From a virus (taxonomy: Duplodnaviria; Heunggongvirae; Uroviricota; Caudoviricetes), in the IMG/VR virus record IMGVR_UViG_2925908680_000005, positions 1 through 43,384 of that record: a DNA stretch of 43,384 nucleotides; one strand, 5' to 3'. The translations under genes and the position numbers were made by a program. This document shows positions 27,927-38,839 of this stretch, in pieces. The notes under the pieces were generated by a model, which worked only from the letters and a program-made list of their open reading frames with translations, searched no databases and was not told where the DNA came from. Each line of letters begins with the position of its first letter. Within the stretch, counting starts at the first letter, position 1.

Positions 27927-28219
27927 TCCTGTTCACTGGCCTCTTTGGCCATCTTCAAATACTGTTCAGGGCAATGCGCCATAACGCGCTGAAACAGTTC
28001 CAGCGCCAGATTGCGTTGCCCCTCATTAAATGCCATTGCCATAGCGTCCATCGGTGAGATAGCGGAAAACACACGGCCTTTCTCCAGCACCGACCAGACA
28101 ACGCGACGCCCCTGTTCACTGCTCATGACAAAGCGAATGTCATCAATTTCACGCTGCGCCATGTCACGTTGCTTACGGGCGTTTTCTTCTTTCAGTTGAT
28201 CATCTTCGTAATCTGTCAT
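27923..28219 (-). CDS. small protein between portal and scaffold
   Basis: 98 aa, translationally coupled. Confidence 0.35.
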   Translation of the reverse strand: MTDYEDDQLKEENARKQRDMAQREIDDIRFVMSSEQGRRVVWSVLEKGRVFSAISPMDAMAMAFNEGQRNLALELFQRVMAHCPEQYLKMAKEASEQE

Positions 28220-29895
28220 TGTGATTGCCCACCCTGACCACTAACTGCATTCGCCATAGCTGACAAAACACTCGGATCCGAAGTTTTAGCTTCGCTTAGC
28301 GTCTTGGCACCCTGTGCCGCCGCCATCCCCATCGCCATCATTTGTTGCTGCTGTTGCTGCTGTGCCCGTTGCTGGCGAGCCTGCTCAACCTGTTCCTGAG
28401 GAACAATGACGGTTGGAGACACTCCGGACATATCAGCGAATGCATCGATCGCCTGATCAACGTTGAGTTTGTCGAGAGCTTCTGGTTTCGCTTGCGCAAG
28501 TTGACCAATGAAGTTAACCGTGGACGCCAGACTGGACAGGCCGATAGACTTCTGCGCCTGAGCCATGACGGAAATGTATTCGACCTTCAGGGGCATGCCT
28601 TCCATCGCGTCAGGCGGTGGCGGCAGCATGTTTTTACGCACCATCATCGAGAAAGCGCGGTCAATGAGAGGATTAAGACATTCGTCGTTCAGACGCTCCA
28701 GAACCGGCCCCAACATCAGAAGCTTTTCTTCTTTCATTTCGATCACCGCTTCAACAGGCATTGAGCGGGTATTGATGTTCTGCAACATCATGAACAGATC
28801 GACGAAGTAGGCGCTGTTGATGGTCTGCCGCGTATCCTGGATGTCGCTGATTAAATCCGCAGTGTTAGGGTTAACCTGATAAACAGGCCTTAATCCTTCC
28901 TGTCCAGTCAGTTGATCTACGTATGTGATGCCACCCGGAAGTAACGAAACACTCTGTGTTCTGAGAGTGGTAGGGGCAACCATCGGAGGGTTTGTCACTT
29001 TGTCGATGATCTGCGACTTGCGCTTCTGGAGAAGCTGCAATGCCTTAACAGGTCCAAGCGCCAGCATACCCGGGCATGATGATCCATAAACATCTTCGCC
29101 GTTAACTTCCCAGCGCGGAGCCATAATTGGAAACTCATCGAATCCGGACTCACGCAACAACTTGTCGTTATCGCCACCAACCTCGTAATAAACCGATTTG
29201 AATGGCTTGTTCTTGCTATCCAGCTTCGATGTATCGCGGTCAATGTTCGGGTAAACCGAGTGCATCACTTCAATCCACTTCTCGTAGGTGCCGCTTTCCC
29301 ACATGCTTTTTACGGATTCGCTGACGTTATTTAGCCCGAACTCCTGAACAAGCTGACGAACAGTCATAGAGAACTTGCGAAAACAGGTGTCCACACTGCC
29401 ACGAGGTGAGTTAGCCAGGTAGTAACTGCCTATCGGGAATGGCATTGTGCGAATAATGTCCTCGTCATCCTCCAGCACCGCCATTGCACCAGTGCTGTAT
29501 GTGCCGAGGCTTCCGTATAACTGCGGAAGAGACTGGTAGAGATTCGACTTATTGAACATATCGTTCATGCGGTTCTGCACCGCCTCAAGCCACAACTTAA
29601 CAGGGCCATAATCCATCATTTCAGGATCTGGCGTAGCCAGGCGAAACCACGGACGCACGGGGCTTGTGATGCCTGACATCATGCCGCTGGCGAGAGTGCG
29701 CGCCGCCATAGTCCCGGTCGAATCAATAATACGTGTATTGCGTCGATCGTTACGGTTGACCTCAGAAGTCAGAAAGCGGGAACCACGCGGGTTGATGTAA
29801 TCACTCAACTCGCGCCAGTGCGGATCGAACGATTGACGCTCGCTTTCAAGTTGTGCGAACTGTTTGTTCAATCGCTCTTTAGTTGTTTCCGCCAT
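28216..29895 (-). CDS. portal (head-to-tail connector) protein
   Basis: 559 aa, first large gene of head module, GGAG ribosome-binding site. Confidence 0.75.
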   Translation of the reverse strand: MAETTKERLNKQFAQLESERQSFDPHWRELSDYINPRGSRFLTSEVNRNDRRNTRIIDSTGTMAARTLASGMMSGITSPVRPWFRLATPDPEMMDYGPVKLWLEAVQNRMNDMFNKSNLYQSLPQLYGSLGTYSTGAMAVLEDDEDIIRTMPFPIGSYYLANSPRGSVDTCFRKFSMTVRQLVQEFGLNNVSESVKSMWESGTYEKWIEVMHSVYPNIDRDTSKLDSKNKPFKSVYYEVGGDNDKLLRESGFDEFPIMAPRWEVNGEDVYGSSCPGMLALGPVKALQLLQKRKSQIIDKVTNPPMVAPTTLRTQSVSLLPGGITYVDQLTGQEGLRPVYQVNPNTADLISDIQDTRQTINSAYFVDLFMMLQNINTRSMPVEAVIEMKEEKLLMLGPVLERLNDECLNPLIDRAFSMMVRKNMLPPPPDAMEGMPLKVEYISVMAQAQKSIGLSSLASTVNFIGQLAQAKPEALDKLNVDQAIDAFADMSGVSPTVIVPQEQVEQARQQRAQQQQQQQMMAMGMAAAQGAKTLSEAKTSDPSVLSAMANAVSGQGGQSQ

Positions 29896-29909
29896 TTCAA
29901 TGACTCCGG

Positions 29910-30116
29910 TTACTGACCAAGCAGCGTTTTACCGCTGGTATTAGCGGTTGATGTGTCGCCCTGAGAACCGGTAAGCAGCGTAGAACTACGACCAGCAGCA
30001 GCGCGACGGCGACGTGTTTCTTCGTCGCGGGCATCAACAACAGCGGCATCCTGCTCCTGTGGTGCTGCCTGAACTTCTGGTGTTGCAGGCACTGATGGTG
30101 AGCTACCCATGCACAT
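29910..30116 (-). CDS. small protein upstream of portal
   Basis: 68 aa; its ribosome-binding context (TCAATGACTCCG) is a 12-bp direct repeat of the portal gene's. Confidence 0.4.
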   Translation of the reverse strand: MCMGSSPSVPATPEVQAAPQEQDAAVVDARDEETRRRRAAAGRSSTLLTGSQGDTSTANTSGKTLLGQ

Positions 30117-30184
30117 ATCAATGACTCCGTACGCAATTAAATTATTACCAATTTAACCACATATGATTTATTTATCGTAGATAG

Positions 30185-30221
30185 TTGACATTTAACGCAC
30201 AAATTATTACCTTTCAGGTAA
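30185..30221 (+). promoter_or_regulatory. candidate promoter (TTGACA at 30185-30190) with perfect operator palindrome TTACC TTTCA GGTAA at 30207-30221, upstream of the tRNA leader
   Basis: read directly; -10 element is weak or ambiguous. Confidence 0.4.
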
Positions 30222-30543
30222 CTAAAGAGTTCATTCCGGTTACTAACCTGACTGGCTTGTCGTTAAATTGAACAGGTGGAGTGAGCTTTTGTTTTGAGCA
30301 GTACGGCGTATGGCACATGCGCCGATAGCGGTCTGGATACGTTTAAGGGGCACCCTCCCTTGCTCGGGCAAACGAACCAGGTAGCCGGAATGTGCAAGTC
30401 GAGCGGTTTTATTCCGCGCACGGGGATTCACCATCCCGGCGATTCGGTGTGACGCCTCGGAAGAGACGAGGGTACAACGATGAGAGCATTTATGGAGCCG
30501 CGACAAAGTGTGGCGCCTTAACAGGCTAAGTGCTCTCAGCGTT

Positions 30544-30620
30544 GTGGCATTAGCTCAGTTGGACAGAGCAACCGCCTTCTAAGCGGTTGGTCGCAGGTTC
30601 GAATCCTGCATGCCACGCCA
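30544..30620 (+). tRNA. tRNA-Arg (anticodon UCU), phage-encoded
   Basis: cloverleaf folded by hand: 7-bp acceptor GTGGCAT/ATGCCAC, D-arm GCTC-AGTTGGACA-GAGC, anticodon stem ACCGC/GCGGT with loop CTTCTAA, T-arm GCAGG-TTCGAAT-CCTGC, discriminator G, encoded CCA. Confidence 0.85.
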
Positions 30621-30663
30621 GAATCACGCCTAAGGACCGTGATGCCAGAAGTTCCAGGTGCTT

Positions 30664-30705
30664 GGCGGTGATGGTTTCCCTTGAAGGACTATCACCGCCC
30701 TTTTT
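30664..30705 (+). terminator. intrinsic terminator 1 downstream of tRNA
   Basis: GGCGGTGAT...ATCACCGCC stem followed by CTTTTT. Confidence 0.5.
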
Positions 30706-30783
30706 ACAGCAGGACGCCATTGCGATGACTTCATGCTGTAAACCAGTACAGCCACGGAAGGCATAACTCATTGCTTCCAGTTC

Positions 30784-30807
30784 GCCCGGTTCGCCGGGCA
30801 TTTTTTT
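30784..30807 (+). terminator. intrinsic terminator 2 downstream of tRNA
   Basis: GCCCGG-TTCG-CCGGGC stem then ATTTTTTT. Confidence 0.7.
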
Positions 30808-30850
30808 AAGGTGTGAATCATGAAATACGAATTCGATGGATTTTGATGTC

Positions 30851-30862
30851 GTGACATGTCAC
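30851..30862. repeat. palindrome GTGACATGTCAC (copy 2 of 3; 14-mer CGTGACATGTCACA)
   Basis: read directly. Confidence 0.7.
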
Positions 30863-30866
30863 AAAC

Positions 30867-30893
30867 AGCCAGCCGATGAGCTGGCTTTGTTTT
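30867..30893 (+). terminator. intrinsic terminator 3 downstream of tRNA
   Basis: AGCCAGC-CGATGA-GCTGGCT stem then TTGTTTTA. Confidence 0.55.
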
Positions 30894-30936
30894 ATCCTCA
30901 CCAGAGGATATCAGCAGCATTATCCCCTCCAGAGGA

Positions 30937-32412
30937 TTAAGCATAGGGATCGTAATCTGTAATGGCCTTGCCTTGCTGGTTCTGCTGACCGGGAATTCGC
31001 AGACGCTTCGACACCGGGAAAGCAAACGTCAGCAGTAGCGCATCGCCTTTACCCGGCGAACGCCCAAGCCGCTCCTTGATATCTTCCTTCGGTTCGATAA
31101 CGATTTTACCGTCCACGCGAACTTTGTACTCTGCCGCCGACAGGTCATCCGCTGTTTCCTGGTCATCCAGCATGCCGCCCAGCCTCAGCCATGTCTTGCA
31201 TGCATTGAACATCTCCCCACGCTTGTTAAGCATCTGCGGGTCAGTGGACGCACCGCCGAACGGAACAAGTTGCCATGTACGTCCCCAGCCATCACCGATT
31301 GACTTCAGACCAGTTCCGTAACCGAAGTCGATGAACACCGCGTCAGCCAGGTACTGGTCTTCAAAGTCAGCGATACGCTTCGCCATAATCAGATCGTCAG
31401 TGGTCTTGTTGCCAGTCCACAGCACCTTACTGTGCAGCCCCTGCCGCAGGTATATCACAGCGTCATCAACGCCGGAATATGCCGGGTCAACGCCGATTAT
31501 CACCGGAGCATGTGCAACCTGCGCAGCGGTTACCACCCGTTTCATTGCCTCGTCAGTAAGGCCGGTAGGGATAAACTGCAATTCAGATGCATCAGGGAAT
31601 ATGCCACGCACACGGATTTTAACGAAGTCGCTGTCTTCCCCGTAGTCATCAACCCATTTCTGCAACTGCTGTTTGTTAGTGCCTTCCACCGTCCGGCTGT
31701 CAATCTGCGCAGTTTTCCAGCGGTGTTTATATTTGCGGAAACATTCGCGAAAACGCCCGGTGTTACGTGTAGGGTTTCCGAACGCCACCCAGATAATCTC
31801 AGTGTCTTCGTCCGTAAGCGCACCCTCAGCGACTTCCCACACCAGATCCGCAATGTTCGACGCTTCATCGAATACCACGATGATGCGTTTGCGCTCGTTG
31901 TGTAGTCCGGCGAATGCCTCAGTGTTGTGCTCAGACCAGGGGATTGCGTCAGCTCGCCACCGCTTGTCGTGCCCAGGGTCATTGCTGTACATCGCGGTAG
32001 CGGTACAGGTAAACCAGTCTTTCGTGATAGCAAGGTTCGACCACTTGATAATTTCCGGCCAGGTCTTCGTTCGTAGCTGGTTGTCGGTGTTGGCGGTCAC
32101 CACGACCTTACAATCCTCGCAAGTGGACATGCCCCAGTTGATCAGCATTGAGATGAATGCGGATTTACCAATACCGTGACCAGAAGCACGTGCCAGCATA
32201 AGCGGCTGATAACGCGTCTCTGGATTCTGCAGGTGATCACGTATCTCTCGGAACGCATCAGCCTGCCACTGACGTGGGCCGGTGGCATGTGCCAGTTCAG
32301 TCCCCTCTTCCCCCCACGGGAACGCATAGAGGGCATAGCCAAGCGGATCGTGAGTGAACCCTGCAATATCCTCGATCAACTGCTCTTCAGGAGATAACGC
32401 TGTATCTGTCAC
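30937..32412 (-). CDS. terminase large subunit
   Basis: 491 aa with ATPase-type N-half and nuclease-type C-half; overlaps small subunit gene stop. Confidence 0.85.
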   Translation of the reverse strand: MTDTALSPEEQLIEDIAGFTHDPLGYALYAFPWGEEGTELAHATGPRQWQADAFREIRDHLQNPETRYQPLMLARASGHGIGKSAFISMLINWGMSTCEDCKVVVTANTDNQLRTKTWPEIIKWSNLAITKDWFTCTATAMYSNDPGHDKRWRADAIPWSEHNTEAFAGLHNERKRIIVVFDEASNIADLVWEVAEGALTDEDTEIIWVAFGNPTRNTGRFRECFRKYKHRWKTAQIDSRTVEGTNKQQLQKWVDDYGEDSDFVKIRVRGIFPDASELQFIPTGLTDEAMKRVVTAAQVAHAPVIIGVDPAYSGVDDAVIYLRQGLHSKVLWTGNKTTDDLIMAKRIADFEDQYLADAVFIDFGYGTGLKSIGDGWGRTWQLVPFGGASTDPQMLNKRGEMFNACKTWLRLGGMLDDQETADDLSAAEYKVRVDGKIVIEPKEDIKERLGRSPGKGDALLLTFAFPVSKRLRIPGQQNQQGKAITDYDPYA

Positions 32413-38420: not shown

Positions 38421-38454
38421 AACCAAATTTGGTTTTTTATTACCTTTAAGGTGC
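38421..38454 (-). promoter_or_regulatory. 14-bp perfect palindrome AACCAAATTTGGTT with adjacent T-run (tR1-like position) plus imperfect operator copy TTACC TTTAA GGTGC (38440-38454)
   Basis: read directly between cro-like and cII-position genes. Confidence 0.35.
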
Positions 38455-38509
38455 GAATAGATATGAAAAGACCGCCGGATGGCGGCCTACAGAGGGTTGT
38501 GGCTGGATA

Positions 38510-38740
38510 TCATGAGTAGAAGAAGTATGCCAGTTCTGCTTTTGAGCGCAGCCATTGTCTTGTTTTACAGGCTTTAAAAAGCCCATTCATCAATACCTTA
38601 CCTGGCATTTTGCGCTTACCTGTTAAGTGAGTCTGGATATAGTGACTCGTCGTTCCGGCTTCCTGTGCGAAGGCTTCACGCTCATCCGGAGTAAGTGCAA
38701 GCCAGTGCTTTTTGAAATCGAAATGTCCGTTATCGCTCAT
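38510..38740 (-). CDS. Cro-like small DNA-binding regulator
   Basis: 76 aa, divergent from repressor gene. Confidence 0.5.
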   Translation of the reverse strand: MSDNGHFDFKKHWLALTPDEREAFAQEAGTTSHYIQTHLTGKRKMPGKVLMNGLFKACKTRQWLRSKAELAYFFYS

Positions 38741-38776
38741 AGCTATTGCCTGATATTTATTTCAGATAATAAATAT

Positions 38777-38839
38777 TCACCCATAAGGTAACAAAAATCA
38801 AGGATAGTTACCTATGGGGTGCATTTACCTGTTGGGTAA
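38777..38839. promoter_or_regulatory. tripartite operator region between cro-like and repressor genes: TCACC CATAA GGTAA (38777-38791), TTACC TATGG GGTGC (38808-38822), TTACC TGTTG GGTAA (38825-38839)
   Basis: read directly; one perfect and two one-or-two-mismatch copies in 63 bp. Confidence 0.6.

Follow-up and report, generated by a model that had tools for sequence, protein, structure and literature searches.

In the window, a stretch of 43,384 nucleotides of viral DNA from a prophage, the leader of a plus-strand tRNA-Arg gene contains a compact structured element, here called the core. Comparison of homologues makes it very probable that the core is a real structured RNA. It appears to represent a new RNA family: its fold is supported by covariation, it is not in Rfam, and no description was found in literature searches on the sequence, put-like prophage RNAs, the phiV10 and epsilon15 tRNAs, and the P1 trnI-ban interval (the P1 genome paper was outside the scope). 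In our main reading, to which we give a probability of about 0.35, the core would be an early-leader RNA that acts in cis and allows transcription to continue past intrinsic terminators between itself and downstream cargo.

The core is part of an 820-bp island, which is best explained by the following order on the plus strand: promoter/operator, 5' hairpin, core, long hairpin, tRNA-Arg, small hairpin, terminators 1 and 2, an empty cargo slot, and terminator 3. The tRNA-Arg is flanked on one side by terL (30937..32412, minus strand) and on the other by a small gp3-like gene (29910..30116, minus strand) and the portal gene (28216..29895, minus strand). The following elements were found at or beside the upstream end of the island.

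30186..30214, plus strand: candidate early promoter with -35 TTGACA (30186-30191), a 17-nt spacer and -10 TACCTT (30209-30214), read from the sequence
30207..30221, no strand assigned: putative repressor operator palindrome TTACCTTTCAGGTAA over the -10 box and transcription start, from a motif count
30139..30149, no strand assigned: second copy of AAATTATTACC (half-operator plus flank), direct-repeat family D4, with the other copy at 30201-30211
29893..29908, minus strand: portal ribosome-binding context CGGAGTCATTGAAATG, direct-repeat family D1, ORF start at 29895
30114..30129, minus strand: ribosome-binding context of the 68-aa gp3-like gene, CGGAGTCATTGATATG, direct-repeat family D1, at the ORF start

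The sequence-only reading had placed an operator-bearing candidate promoter ahead of the leader. This was supported by the perfect palindrome that overlaps the -10 box and by the retention of the hexamers in relatives. A generic promoter scan misses this promoter because its -10 box is weak (3/6 matches). TTGACA-17-TACCTT and the palindrome are kept in Citrobacter, Buttiauxella and Pseudocitrobacter relatives despite differing flanks, and hexamers and spacing are the same in four loci (L138, L143, L150 and L153) with different surrounding sequence. The palindrome is the sole perfect copy in the window, where sites of this motif with at most two mismatches number 16 versus 0.9 expected. The homologous site in epsilon15 carries the annotation 'repressor, lysogeny'. 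The 12-bp direct repeat that had been assigned to the ribosome-binding context of the portal gene and of the small gene upstream of it was also found as described: CAT(T/A)TCAATGACTCCG at 29893-29908 and 30114-30129 reads CGGAGTCATTGA(A/T)ATG on the minus strand, which is a Shine-Dalgarno sequence with a start codon.

Downstream of the promoter, the leader consists of consecutive RNA modules, namely a 5' hairpin, the 174-nt core and a 72-nt long hairpin adjoining tRNA-Arg. The earlier suggestion that this leader of about 330 nt could be a structured RNA was borne out by a covariation-supported, pseudoknotted RNA between two hairpins, composed as follows.

30302..30475, plus strand: core structured RNA, 174 nt, six helices including a pseudoknot, from covariance model R1
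30304-30312/30316-30324, plus strand: core helix P1
30329-30335 with 30378-30380 and 30384-30387, plus strand: core helix P2, with a GUA bulge at 30381-30383
30388-30397, plus strand: invariant single strand of the core, GAAUGUGCAA, 10 nt
30398-30400/30438-30440, plus strand: closing helix of the core around a variable hairpin
30423-30426/30434-30437, plus strand: core helix P4
30429-30432 with 30446-30449, plus strand: core pseudoknot of CACC with GGUG
30455-30459/30467-30471, plus strand: core helix P6, loop GAAGAGA

Covariance model R1 scored the core of the window with 146.7 bits (E 1e-42), and full-length matches to R1 (n=45) scored 127-162 bits. Among 40 distinct sequences, 98.8% of the pair cells in the core are paired, versus 30-41% in slid controls. 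Double compensatory changes were detected at 12 pairs, and none of 500 shuffles attained the observed value. The covariation was unchanged when the alignment was not fitted to the R1 model. The pseudoknot pair occurs as C-G 31 times and as A-U seven times and is never broken, and the G-U pairs in the core are compatible with the plus strand only. Across homologues, the core is 153-180 nt long, and many of its junction nucleotides, loops and long single-stranded segments are invariant. At a further pseudoknot candidate, between a CUUG motif in the P2 loop and an invariant GCAAG, P1-type cores read CCUAG; both partners are otherwise invariant.

Could this conservation stem from coding? The region would then be a small-protein gene of the PhiV10p04 or mEp460_037 type, on the opposite strand. 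Hypothetical proteins are indeed annotated in database records (mEp460_037 over this region and PhiV10p04 over the tRNA), and the window has an 87-aa ORF with a TTG start at 30243..30506 on the minus strand. However, none of the frames in the leader is open in all of 38 distinct homologues (the best is open in 18/38), and the spacer lengths, like the insertions and deletions, occupy all three mod-3 classes. This frame and insertion/deletion analysis ruled out coding on either strand. In addition, the substitutions in helices are compensatory, and PhiV10p04 is antisense to a 73-bit tRNA. A protein-coding explanation is thus extremely improbable and, as far as comparison of homologues can tell, effectively refuted. 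In line with the ORF-free leader described previously, 30215-30543 is overlapped by short unconserved ORFs only.

Using Rfam 15, we obtained no match to the leader at gathering thresholds and none on the plus strand of 30215-30543 at E<=10; the homologous loci had no Rfam match either. Two weak sub-threshold matches at E<=10, on the opposite strand at 30209-30347, were regarded as chance. The proposal that the leader is a degraded tRNA cluster did not hold in this window: neither ARAGORN nor Rfam, even at E<=10, gave a tRNA-like match in 30215-30543, and this candidate was rejected.

The hairpins on both sides of the core have the following coordinates.

30225..30290, plus strand: 5' hairpin with arms AAGAGUUCAUUCC (30225-30237) and GGAGUGAGCUUUU (30278-30290) and a loop with UUGUCGUUAAAU; 13-bp stem in the minimum-free-energy fold
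30474..30545, plus strand: long hairpin with arms ACAACGAUGAGAGCAUUUA (30474-30492) and UAAGUGCUCUCAGCGUUGU (30527-30545) and a 34-nt loop; inverted repeat I1

In Klebsiella and Erwinia relatives, the core is preceded by a CACAACAUGAAAGCGCAC...GUGCGCUUCCAGGUGUG hairpin to which the loop and 3' arm of the 5' hairpin are homologous. The arms of the long hairpin (19 nt, 89% complementary) surround a loop that is hypervariable in relatives (7-93 nt), and the 3' arm shares 2 nt with the 5' end of tRNA-Arg. The pairing was assessed by folding each variant separately; a gapless arm alignment is unusable for pair counts, as a one-base bulge distinguishes two types of arm. Eleven different arm variants were found in relatives, each of which retains 16-19 bp with one internal mismatch or bulge. 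Comparison of homologues shows both the core and the long hairpin to be RNA structures under selection. In some relatives (SPN9TCW and Stx2a_WGPS2), fragments resembling tRNA 3' halves were observed inside the long-hairpin loop. An RNase III site was annotated nearby by the epsilon15 curators, on the other strand.

The tRNA and the small hairpin that follows it were located as follows.

30544..30620, plus strand: tRNA-Arg (anticodon UCU/tct), from ARAGORN and Rfam tRNA
30624..30644, plus strand: small hairpin AUCACG-CCUAAGGAC-CGUGAU just 3' of tRNA-Arg, read from the sequence

The plus-strand tRNA-Arg(UCU) already recognised from the sequence is the only ARAGORN tRNA in the window. It was also found with Rfam RF00005, with 73.3 bits versus a gathering score of 29, which places it in that family. 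CCA is encoded in the gene (30618-30620, read from the sequence). The small hairpin is of a type that also follows a tRNA or tRNA-shaped module in Klebsiella, Citrobacter and Enterobacter relatives. In E. coli, AGA accounts for roughly 2 per 1000 codons; its frequency in the 44 ORFs of the window is 8.35 per 1000. The idea that the tRNA serves AGA decoding is plausible. The AGA-rich genes lie mostly outside the head module (AGA codons: capsid 0, terL 0, portal 1).

To place the core in a wider context, we considered its distribution. It is present in 1840 of 5426 complete E. coli genomes (34%) and was never annotated. The core and the long hairpin are common to three unrelated groups of temperate phages, lambdoid, P1-like and epsilon15-like, P1 and Shiga-toxin phages included, and prophages of Klebsiella, Salmonella and Citrobacter also carry the core. 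The core directly follows PL in lambdoid phages without a recognisable N (mEp460, cdtI and Stx2c phages), lies upstream of ban in P1/P7, and occurs in epsilon15-like phages of several genera; epsilon15 itself has a core reduced to a 72-nt remnant. In each context, core and hairpin are downstream of a promoter that bears, or is annotated with, phage repressor operators. In mEp460, a promoter with a TTGC-N7-GCAA operator on either side precedes the start of the core by about 40 nt, and a third copy of the operator lies between cI and cro. The P7 core is located inside the C1-operator-controlled ban operon, between tRNA-Ile (14 nt upstream of the core) and ban. In Kosakonia prophages, the core is upstream of early-left genes of the yfdP/yfdQ type, and in Enterobacter and Pseudescherichia prophages it lies downstream of a cI-like (S24 peptidase) repressor gene, before a same-strand gene array. 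The RNA modules are shuffled between contexts: some cores have the hairpin and others do not, and a tRNA or a tRNA-shaped domain accompanies the core in some cases, while both are missing in others.

This habitual linkage to tRNA-type modules would be expected if the leader were a scaffold for maturation or expression of a companion tRNA or tRNA-shaped RNA (folding, RNase P/RNase III processing, stability). A tRNA-Arg follows the core in the window, phiV10, SPN9TCW and Klebsiella phages, a tRNA-shaped domain follows it in lambdoid phages and Tyrion, and the position of P7 tRNA-Ile and the tRNA-like loop fragments mentioned above point in the same direction. However, bacterial and phage tRNAs normally do not need such a leader, and Kosakonia and Phytobacter copies of the core have no recognisable directly attached tRNA-type neighbour. 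Furthermore, phage LLS has a tRNA-shaped module and hairpin but no core, and the complexity of the core and its invariant junctions go beyond the needs of a passive scaffold. We consider a scaffold quite unlikely.

A compact multi-helix fold with a pseudoknot and many invariant junction nucleotides, a size and conservation pattern typical of aptamers and ribozymes, and a 5' leader position in lambdoid phages could also speak for a riboswitch that senses a ligand or a ribozyme that cleaves itself, either setting expression of the early operon or processing the RNA array. However, what comes after the core differs between contexts (unrelated sequence, a tRNA, the 5' UTR of an mRNA, or a hairpin that is not a terminator), and a common expression platform, such as a terminator/antiterminator or RBS sequestration, is absent. 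No Rfam riboswitch or ribozyme model matched, even at E<=10. We consider a riboswitch or ribozyme very unlikely.

Downstream of tRNA-Arg, the island contains terminators and a cargo slot.

30664..30705, plus strand: terminator 1, a 14-bp stem followed by CUUUUU, from the terminator scan
30784..30807, plus strand: terminator 2, GCCCGG-UUCG-CCGGGC followed by AUUUUUUU, from the terminator scan; it directly abuts the Shine-Dalgarno sequence of the cargo slot
30808..30846, plus strand: cargo-gene stub with Shine-Dalgarno AAGG (30808-30811), ATG at 30820, eight codons (MKYEFDGF) and stop at 30844-30846
30867..30894, plus strand: terminator 3, AGCCAGC-CGAUGA-GCUGGCU followed by UUGUUUUA, from the terminator scan

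As anticipated, three plus-strand terminator-like hairpins follow tRNA-Arg (30664-30699, 30784-30799 and 30867-30886). The scan of this strand gave four hits versus 1.6 +/- 1.2 in shuffles; the fourth is a weak terminator-like hairpin at 30236-30255, within the 5' hairpin. Terminator 1 is restricted to E. coli-type relatives. The junction of terminator 2 and cargo is conserved in phiV10, Tyrion, Klebsiella ST512-KPC3phi13.3 and SPN9TCW, and the stem covaries in SPN9TCW (GCCCAC/GUGGGC). The cargo stub can be aligned to the beginnings of phiV10 p03 and Tyrion gp53, both full-length genes at that position. Terminator 3 is convergent with terL and lies 43 nt from its stop codon, and phiV10 has an annotated rho-independent terminator near the corresponding position.

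In the read-through mechanism that we favour, the island would be one early, repressor-controlled, non-coding transcription unit on the plus strand, transcribed upon derepression. RNase P would cut at the tRNA 5' end (30543/30544) and release the leader, and the long hairpin of about 19 bp is possibly an RNase III site. The core would work in cis on the early transcription complex, leading to read-through of the intrinsic terminators between the RNA modules and downstream genes, an effect comparable to that of HK022 put RNA, to which it is not homologous, and tRNA-Arg(UCU) would provide AGA decoding for AGA-rich phage genes. In four phages, terminator 2 directly adjoins the Shine-Dalgarno sequence and start codon (ATG) of a cargo gene, and the four genes are unrelated. 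This leaves no room for a promoter, and transcription of these genes can come only through terminator 2. Similarly, a strong terminator-like hairpin (z = -3.2) lies between the RNA modules and the first early-left gene of mEp460, and a Pfam search of the first early-left ORFs revealed no N-like family. The long invariant single-stranded segments of the core are compatible with contact to a conserved host machine.

Several observations count against read-through. Only one core copy was found in each locus, and over the 1.6 kb that the fetched loci span, the PR side has none; nothing useful but antisense terL lies beyond the terminators in the window; and epsilon15 retains just the 72-nt remnant. 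Terminators right after RNA modules would be expected just as much from a simple cluster of RNA genes that ends in a stop of its own. Phage LLS, which is without N, has a similar PL leader (hairpins, a tRNA-shaped module and two terminators) yet no core. A universal antiterminator of N-less lambdoid phages was thus rejected, and the core is not the sole solution and perhaps not the antiterminator at all.

Alternatively, the core could be a stable trans-acting ncRNA, cut from a polycistronic precursor by RNase P at the tRNA or tRNA-shaped module and by RNase III at the long hairpins. In early lytic growth, it would then target a host protein or RNA that is conserved, by binding or sequestration (host takeover or counter-defence). 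The modules reshuffle as independent units and end in terminators, processing signals flank the core, with the 3' arm of the long hairpin adjoining the tRNA 5' end, and the invariant GAAUGUGCAA and loops resemble a binding surface. C4 of P1/P7 and CI of P4 are precedents for leader-derived, RNase P-processed phage regulatory RNAs. A C4/isrK pair was detected by Rfam in the window, and phages of the mEp460 type and P1/P7, which also carry the core, have C4/isrK as well. However, a search for antisense targets of the invariant single strands and loops in the window and in the P7, mEp460, Klebsiella and SPN9TCW loci gave only the opposite strand of the core itself. In one P1/P7 subtype, about 95 nt and no terminator separate the core from the downstream start codon of ban, and it is therefore part of the mRNA 5' UTR. 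A trans-acting RNA would also leave the lambdoid terminators ahead of early-left genes unexplained. We regard it as unlikely, though less so than a scaffold.

In many lambdoid phages without a recognisable N, which form a large class, the core occupies the interval from PL to the early-left genes, a site that decides early gene expression. How the related N-less phage LLS achieves early antitermination was raised as a question (PMC12315714). Should the core act on RNA polymerase, this would be a second natural case in which processive antitermination works without a protein, and synthetic biology would gain a compact part. Should it instead work in trans, it would be a new early phage effector RNA. 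Either way, the spurious ORF annotations PhiV10p04 and mEp460_037 are corrected, and the core is a testable element in the tractable phages P1, phiV10 and mEp460. It is possible, if somewhat doubtful, that the core founds a new class of RNAs that reprogram host transcription or another conserved host machine without a phage protein. It would then be a second, structurally unrelated put-like system, spread over N-less lambdoid phages, P1-like phage-plasmids and epsilon15-like podophages, and would belong to a bigger, undescribed repertoire of modules (long CACAAC...GUUGUG hairpins, tRNA-shaped domains and a small 5' pseudoknot-like module) that are shuffled among the early leaders of many enterobacterial temperate phages.

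Among known systems, the tRNA cluster of T4 carries extra small stable RNAs, species 1 and 2. The island resembles it in having structured RNAs cotranscribed with phage tRNAs and presumably freed by tRNA-processing enzymes, but the core phages are temperate and the core also occurs tRNA-free as an mRNA leader. With C4 (P1/P7) and CI RNA (P4), Rfam clan CL00128, the core shares the position of an ncRNA within an early or immunity leader, beside an RNase P substrate. C4 (87 nt) pairs in antisense with sites in its own operon, whereas the search of the window and the P7, mEp460, Klebsiella and SPN9TCW loci gave no such complementary sites for the core; the core also lacks similarity to the C4 models.

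The long untranslated transcript with tRNA and processing stems is reminiscent of rrn operons, and in many variants the 3' arm of the long hairpin reads UGCUCUUU, similar to rrn boxA. The boxA consensus is (U/C)GCUCUU(U/A)A, which is single-stranded and binds NusB/NusE. In the window, however, the 3' arm UGCUCUCAG is base-paired; the string changes along with the opposite arm of the stem and has disappeared from several relatives, which have GCCGUUU, AUCCUUA or GUCAUCU instead. Being base-paired and not present in all variants, it behaves as a stem, and a boxA was rejected. Like lambda nutL/N, the core occupies the nutL-N position (cI, terminator, OL/PL, leader), but an N-like protein was not found in the first early-left ORFs.

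The closest parallel is put of HK022, the cis-acting processive antiterminator RNAs putL and putR, which are early-promoter-proximal (PMC9378689). Run without filters over the early region of HK022, the 28.5% of its genome that surrounds cI, R1 scored at best 4.2 bits, and with no similarity in sequence or structure, homology to put was rejected. A put element has about 70 nt and two stem-loops, whereas the core has 153-180 nt (2.5x put) and six helices including a pseudoknot. There are two put elements in HK022, putL and putR, as against one core copy per locus; the core is also found in P1-like and epsilon15-like phages. Acting in cis through the beta' zinc-binding domain, put renders RNA polymerase resistant to terminators; the core is predicted to have an antitermination effect. 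Both elements are located just downstream of a repressor-controlled early promoter in lambdoid phages without recognisable N, with intrinsic terminators between the element and the early genes and no dedicated phage protein evident. Thus, the core shares the position of put: it follows the early promoter and precedes terminators (three in the window), and no N-like Pfam match was found in the first early-left ORFs.

Region 29900-31000 of the window, an epsilon15/phiV10-like (Uetakevirus) prophage, shares 97-99% identity with phiv142-3, phiV10, and relatives. The sequence-only reading described a plus-strand tRNA-Arg island with three terminators behind the tRNA and a repeated ribosome-binding context, and all of these parts were recovered. 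ARAGORN and Rfam (73.3 bits) both detected the tRNA, the only one in the window; its CCA is encoded in the gene, as read from the sequence. It is flanked by terL on one side and by a 68-amino acid (aa) gp3-like gene and the portal gene, both on the minus strand, on the other.

29893-29908 and 30114-30129, direct repeat with the ribosome-binding site (RBS), confirmed by repeat search
30207-30221, perfect operator palindrome
30225-30290, weaker hairpin of the long-hairpin type, ahead of the core
30302-30475 (+), core RNA
30474-30545 (+), long hairpin
30544-30620 (+), tRNA-Arg(tct)
30664-30699, 30784-30799, and 30867-30886 (+), terminator-like hairpins 1 to 3
30820-30846, 8-codon stub, the only content of the cargo slot (the gene position directly after terminator 2)
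30937..32412 (-), terL

Further repeats lie at the edges of the island. A direct repeat, TTATCC(T/C)C(A/T)CCAGAGGAT, whose copies at 30892-30909 and 30920-30937 are each an inverted repeat as well (ATCCTC...GAGGAT), fills part of the interval from terminator 3 to the terL stop codon. The stop-codon and RBS junction of the small gene and the portal gene (29893-29918; minus strand GGTCAGTAACCGGAGTCATTGAAATG) recurs split, at 30114-30129 plus 30231-30248: the RBS half lies ahead of the small gene, and the stop-codon half (GGTTAGTAACCGGAATGA) about 105 bp beyond, across the operator/promoter segment. This split junction may be a scar of island insertion. Some database entries are probably erroneous: the phiv142-3 record (L001 3151-3219) has the tRNA-Arg on the wrong strand, and PhiV10p04 (phiV10, L002 3151-3402) and mEp460_037 (mEp460, L004 2443-2811), open reading frames (ORFs) antisense to the tRNA-Arg and the core RNA, respectively, look like annotation errors.

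Across 44 window ORFs, AGA and AGG occur at 8.35 and 6.3 per 1000 codons. AGA is absent from the capsid, protease, and terL genes and occurs once in the portal gene; AGA-rich genes are mostly outside the head module. Rare-codon supplementation by the tRNA-Arg is plausible.

When the leader alone was used for searching, 30303-30543 was about 82% identical to unannotated DNA of unrelated phages. Carriers include lambdoid phages (mEp460, cdtI, Stx2c- and Stx2a-converting phages, 2H10, and Ayreon) and phage-plasmids (P7 and P1-like; also P1, D6, SJ46, and RCS47), and Klebsiella, Salmonella, and Enterobacter podophages have homologues at about 70-75% identity. A homologue is present in 1840 of 5426 complete E. 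coli genomes, where RefSeq annotates nothing at these copies except the tRNA. Many more variants came from scanning IMG/VR and a set with one genome for each species by sequence pattern. All true genome matches are from Enterobacterales except one metagenome-assembled "Bacillota" contig (L154), a suspected contaminant.

The aligned homologues consist of invariant blocks between stretches variable in length and sequence. A structure model was built from 25 diverse cores. It comprises hairpin P1; P2, a bulged helix closing a variable domain; a 3-bp closing helix around a variable hairpin plus P4; a pseudoknot in which the P4 loop CACC pairs with a downstream GGUG; and hairpin P6 with the loop GAAGAGA. 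In a MAFFT alignment, 97.9% of pair cells were paired vs. 31-42% with slid partners, and double-sided changes occurred in 10 pairs, a value reached by 0 of 500 shuffles. The covariance model R1 matched 45 full-length copies (127-162 bits; window copy, 146.7 bits); in its 40-sequence alignment, 98.8% of cells were paired vs. 30-41% when slid, with compensatory changes in 12 pairs. In seven sequences, drawn from three or more lineages, the pseudoknot pair is A-U instead of C-G, and no sequence breaks it; G-U pairs fit the plus strand only. The core is thus a selected RNA structure, in agreement with one of the two earlier suggestions for the leader, a structured RNA. Its homologues share no conserved reading frame, with insertions and deletions in all mod-3 classes, and a coding gene is highly improbable. 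No Rfam family matched the window leader or its homologues, and no description of the invariant strings was found in the literature searched. A function of this fold as a riboswitch or ribozyme is improbable.

Invariant AUGUGC (30391-30396, single-stranded after P2) has an exact complement, invariant GCACAU, in the P1 loop and 3' strand (30313-30321), and the two could form a tertiary or alternative pairing. Both are nearly invariant and so outside the reach of covariation; the only variant, GAACAU in homologous locus L153, would break one pair.

The palindrome TTACCTTTCAGGTAA at 30207-30221 is the sole perfect copy among 16 sites of TTACC-N5-GGTAA (≤2 mismatches) in the window, where 0.9 were expected (7381, 7553, 10974, 11354, 15657, 20677, 30207, 33023, 36360, 36422, 38440-38839, 39537, and 39599). 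The sites flank the isrK/C4 region, sit ahead of terS, and form a cluster at 36.3-39.6 kb. This excess of sites suggests a dispersed operator set comparable to that of the P1 C1 repressor, and the phage repressor thus seems to govern many promoters spread over the window. The palindrome overlaps the -10 element of a TTGACA-17-TACCTT promoter, which a generic promoter scan missed because this element is too weak; the promoter is kept in Citrobacter, Pseudocitrobacter, and Buttiauxella relatives despite diverged flanks. At 11405-11586 (+), isrK RNA (74.7 bits) is directly followed by C4 antisense RNA (79.5 bits), a pair known from P1/P7-type antirepressor control. The mEp460-type lambdoid loci (L004, L005, L010, and L011) have this pair too, at a distance of about 2 kb from the core.

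In mEp460-type phages, the order is cI, terminator, two TTGC-N7-GCAA operators, core, long hairpin, tRNA-shaped domain, strong terminator-like hairpin, and first early-left gene, with a third operator between cI and cro; therefore, the core is the 5' leader of the early-left promoter (PL) transcript. Kosakonia prophages carry it upstream of yfdP/yfdQ-type early-left genes. In those of Enterobacter and Pseudescherichia, it follows the gene for a cI-like repressor (S24 peptidase) and precedes a same-strand array of genes. The first ORFs tested in these lambdoid-type prophages matched no N-like Pfam family. The P7 core is part of the ban operon, which C1 operators control; tRNA-Ile ends 14 nt upstream of it, and ban starts about 95 nt downstream. 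Thus, in lambdoid, P7, and epsilon15-like phages alike, the core belongs to a repressor-controlled early transcript. In the mEp460-type and epsilon15-like loci, terminators separate the RNA from downstream genes. In epsilon15-like phages, terminator 2, whose stem covaries, is directly followed by the Shine-Dalgarno sequence and ATG of a cargo gene whose identity depends on the phage (phiV10 p03, Tyrion gp53, a Klebsiella 173-aa protein, or an SPN9TCW protein), leaving no promoter-sized gap.

All 11 arm variants of the long hairpin keep 16-19 bp around a loop of 7-93 nt. Its 3' arm overlaps the first two bases of the tRNA-Arg; a role of the leader as a tRNA-maturation scaffold is unlikely. RNase P cleavage at 30543/30544 would release the leader, and RNase III may cut at the hairpins; a processed, trans-acting RNA is possible but doubtful.

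The loop in SPN9TCW (L009 about 1680-1770) and in 1720a-02 and Stx2a_WGPS2 (L010/L011/L104) holds about 90 nt with T-arm-like and acceptor-3'-like strings (GGTTCAATTCCAG...; GGTCAGTTCGATTCGGACACC), which look like captured tRNA fragments; inserts in other relatives are unrelated (7-93 nt). More CACAA(C/G)...GUUGUG hairpins occur later in the leaders of mEp460 (L004 2940-3030) and LLS (L161 31800-31900, minus strand), sharing the insert CACCGG(A/G)CGACGGGCUCAUAACCCAAUCCA; given this recurrence, the hairpin seems to be a "container" module. Many relatives, among them mEp460 (L004 2738-2873), Tyrion (L007), and loci L005, L136, L149, and L152, have a tRNA-shaped RNA of about 135 nt in place of the tRNA-Arg. 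Its acceptor-like stem (GUUGUGGUG/CACCACAAC) measures 9 bp and is accompanied by a D-like hairpin, a T-like arm beside the 3' strand, and a long arm in the center; the RNA gave no Rfam match and no ARAGORN call.

We favor, at a probability of roughly one in three, a cis-acting leader that would render early transcription terminator-resistant; what is left after this reading and the less likely ones named above falls on none of them. According to a 2025 study (PMC12315714), phage LLS lacks N and may rely on a put-like RNA; its CI and Cro are closest to those of mEp460_4F5, and it carries the same yfdP/yfdQ genes in its early-left operon. The LLS PL leader contains the same long hairpins, tRNA-shaped domain, and two terminators, with a different small 5' module as its first element, followed by a terminator-like hairpin. 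This conserved module, CCACCG(A/C)GCCUGAUGUGGU(G/U)AAAAG(A)CAGGC, whose stems CCAC/GUGG and GCCUG/CAGGC interleave pseudoknot-like, occupies the 5' end in several PL leaders (LLS, L161 32215-32250, minus strand; L145 7440-7480 and about 7975; L152 4125-4165; L135; L055) and is absent from the window. Against antitermination count the single core copy found per locus, the reduction of the epsilon15 core to a remnant, the lack of a core in LLS, and the fact that the core is unrelated to the HK022 put RNAs. The core defines a new and widespread family of RNAs, and its setting, in phage early leaders and tRNA islands, is of a known kind.
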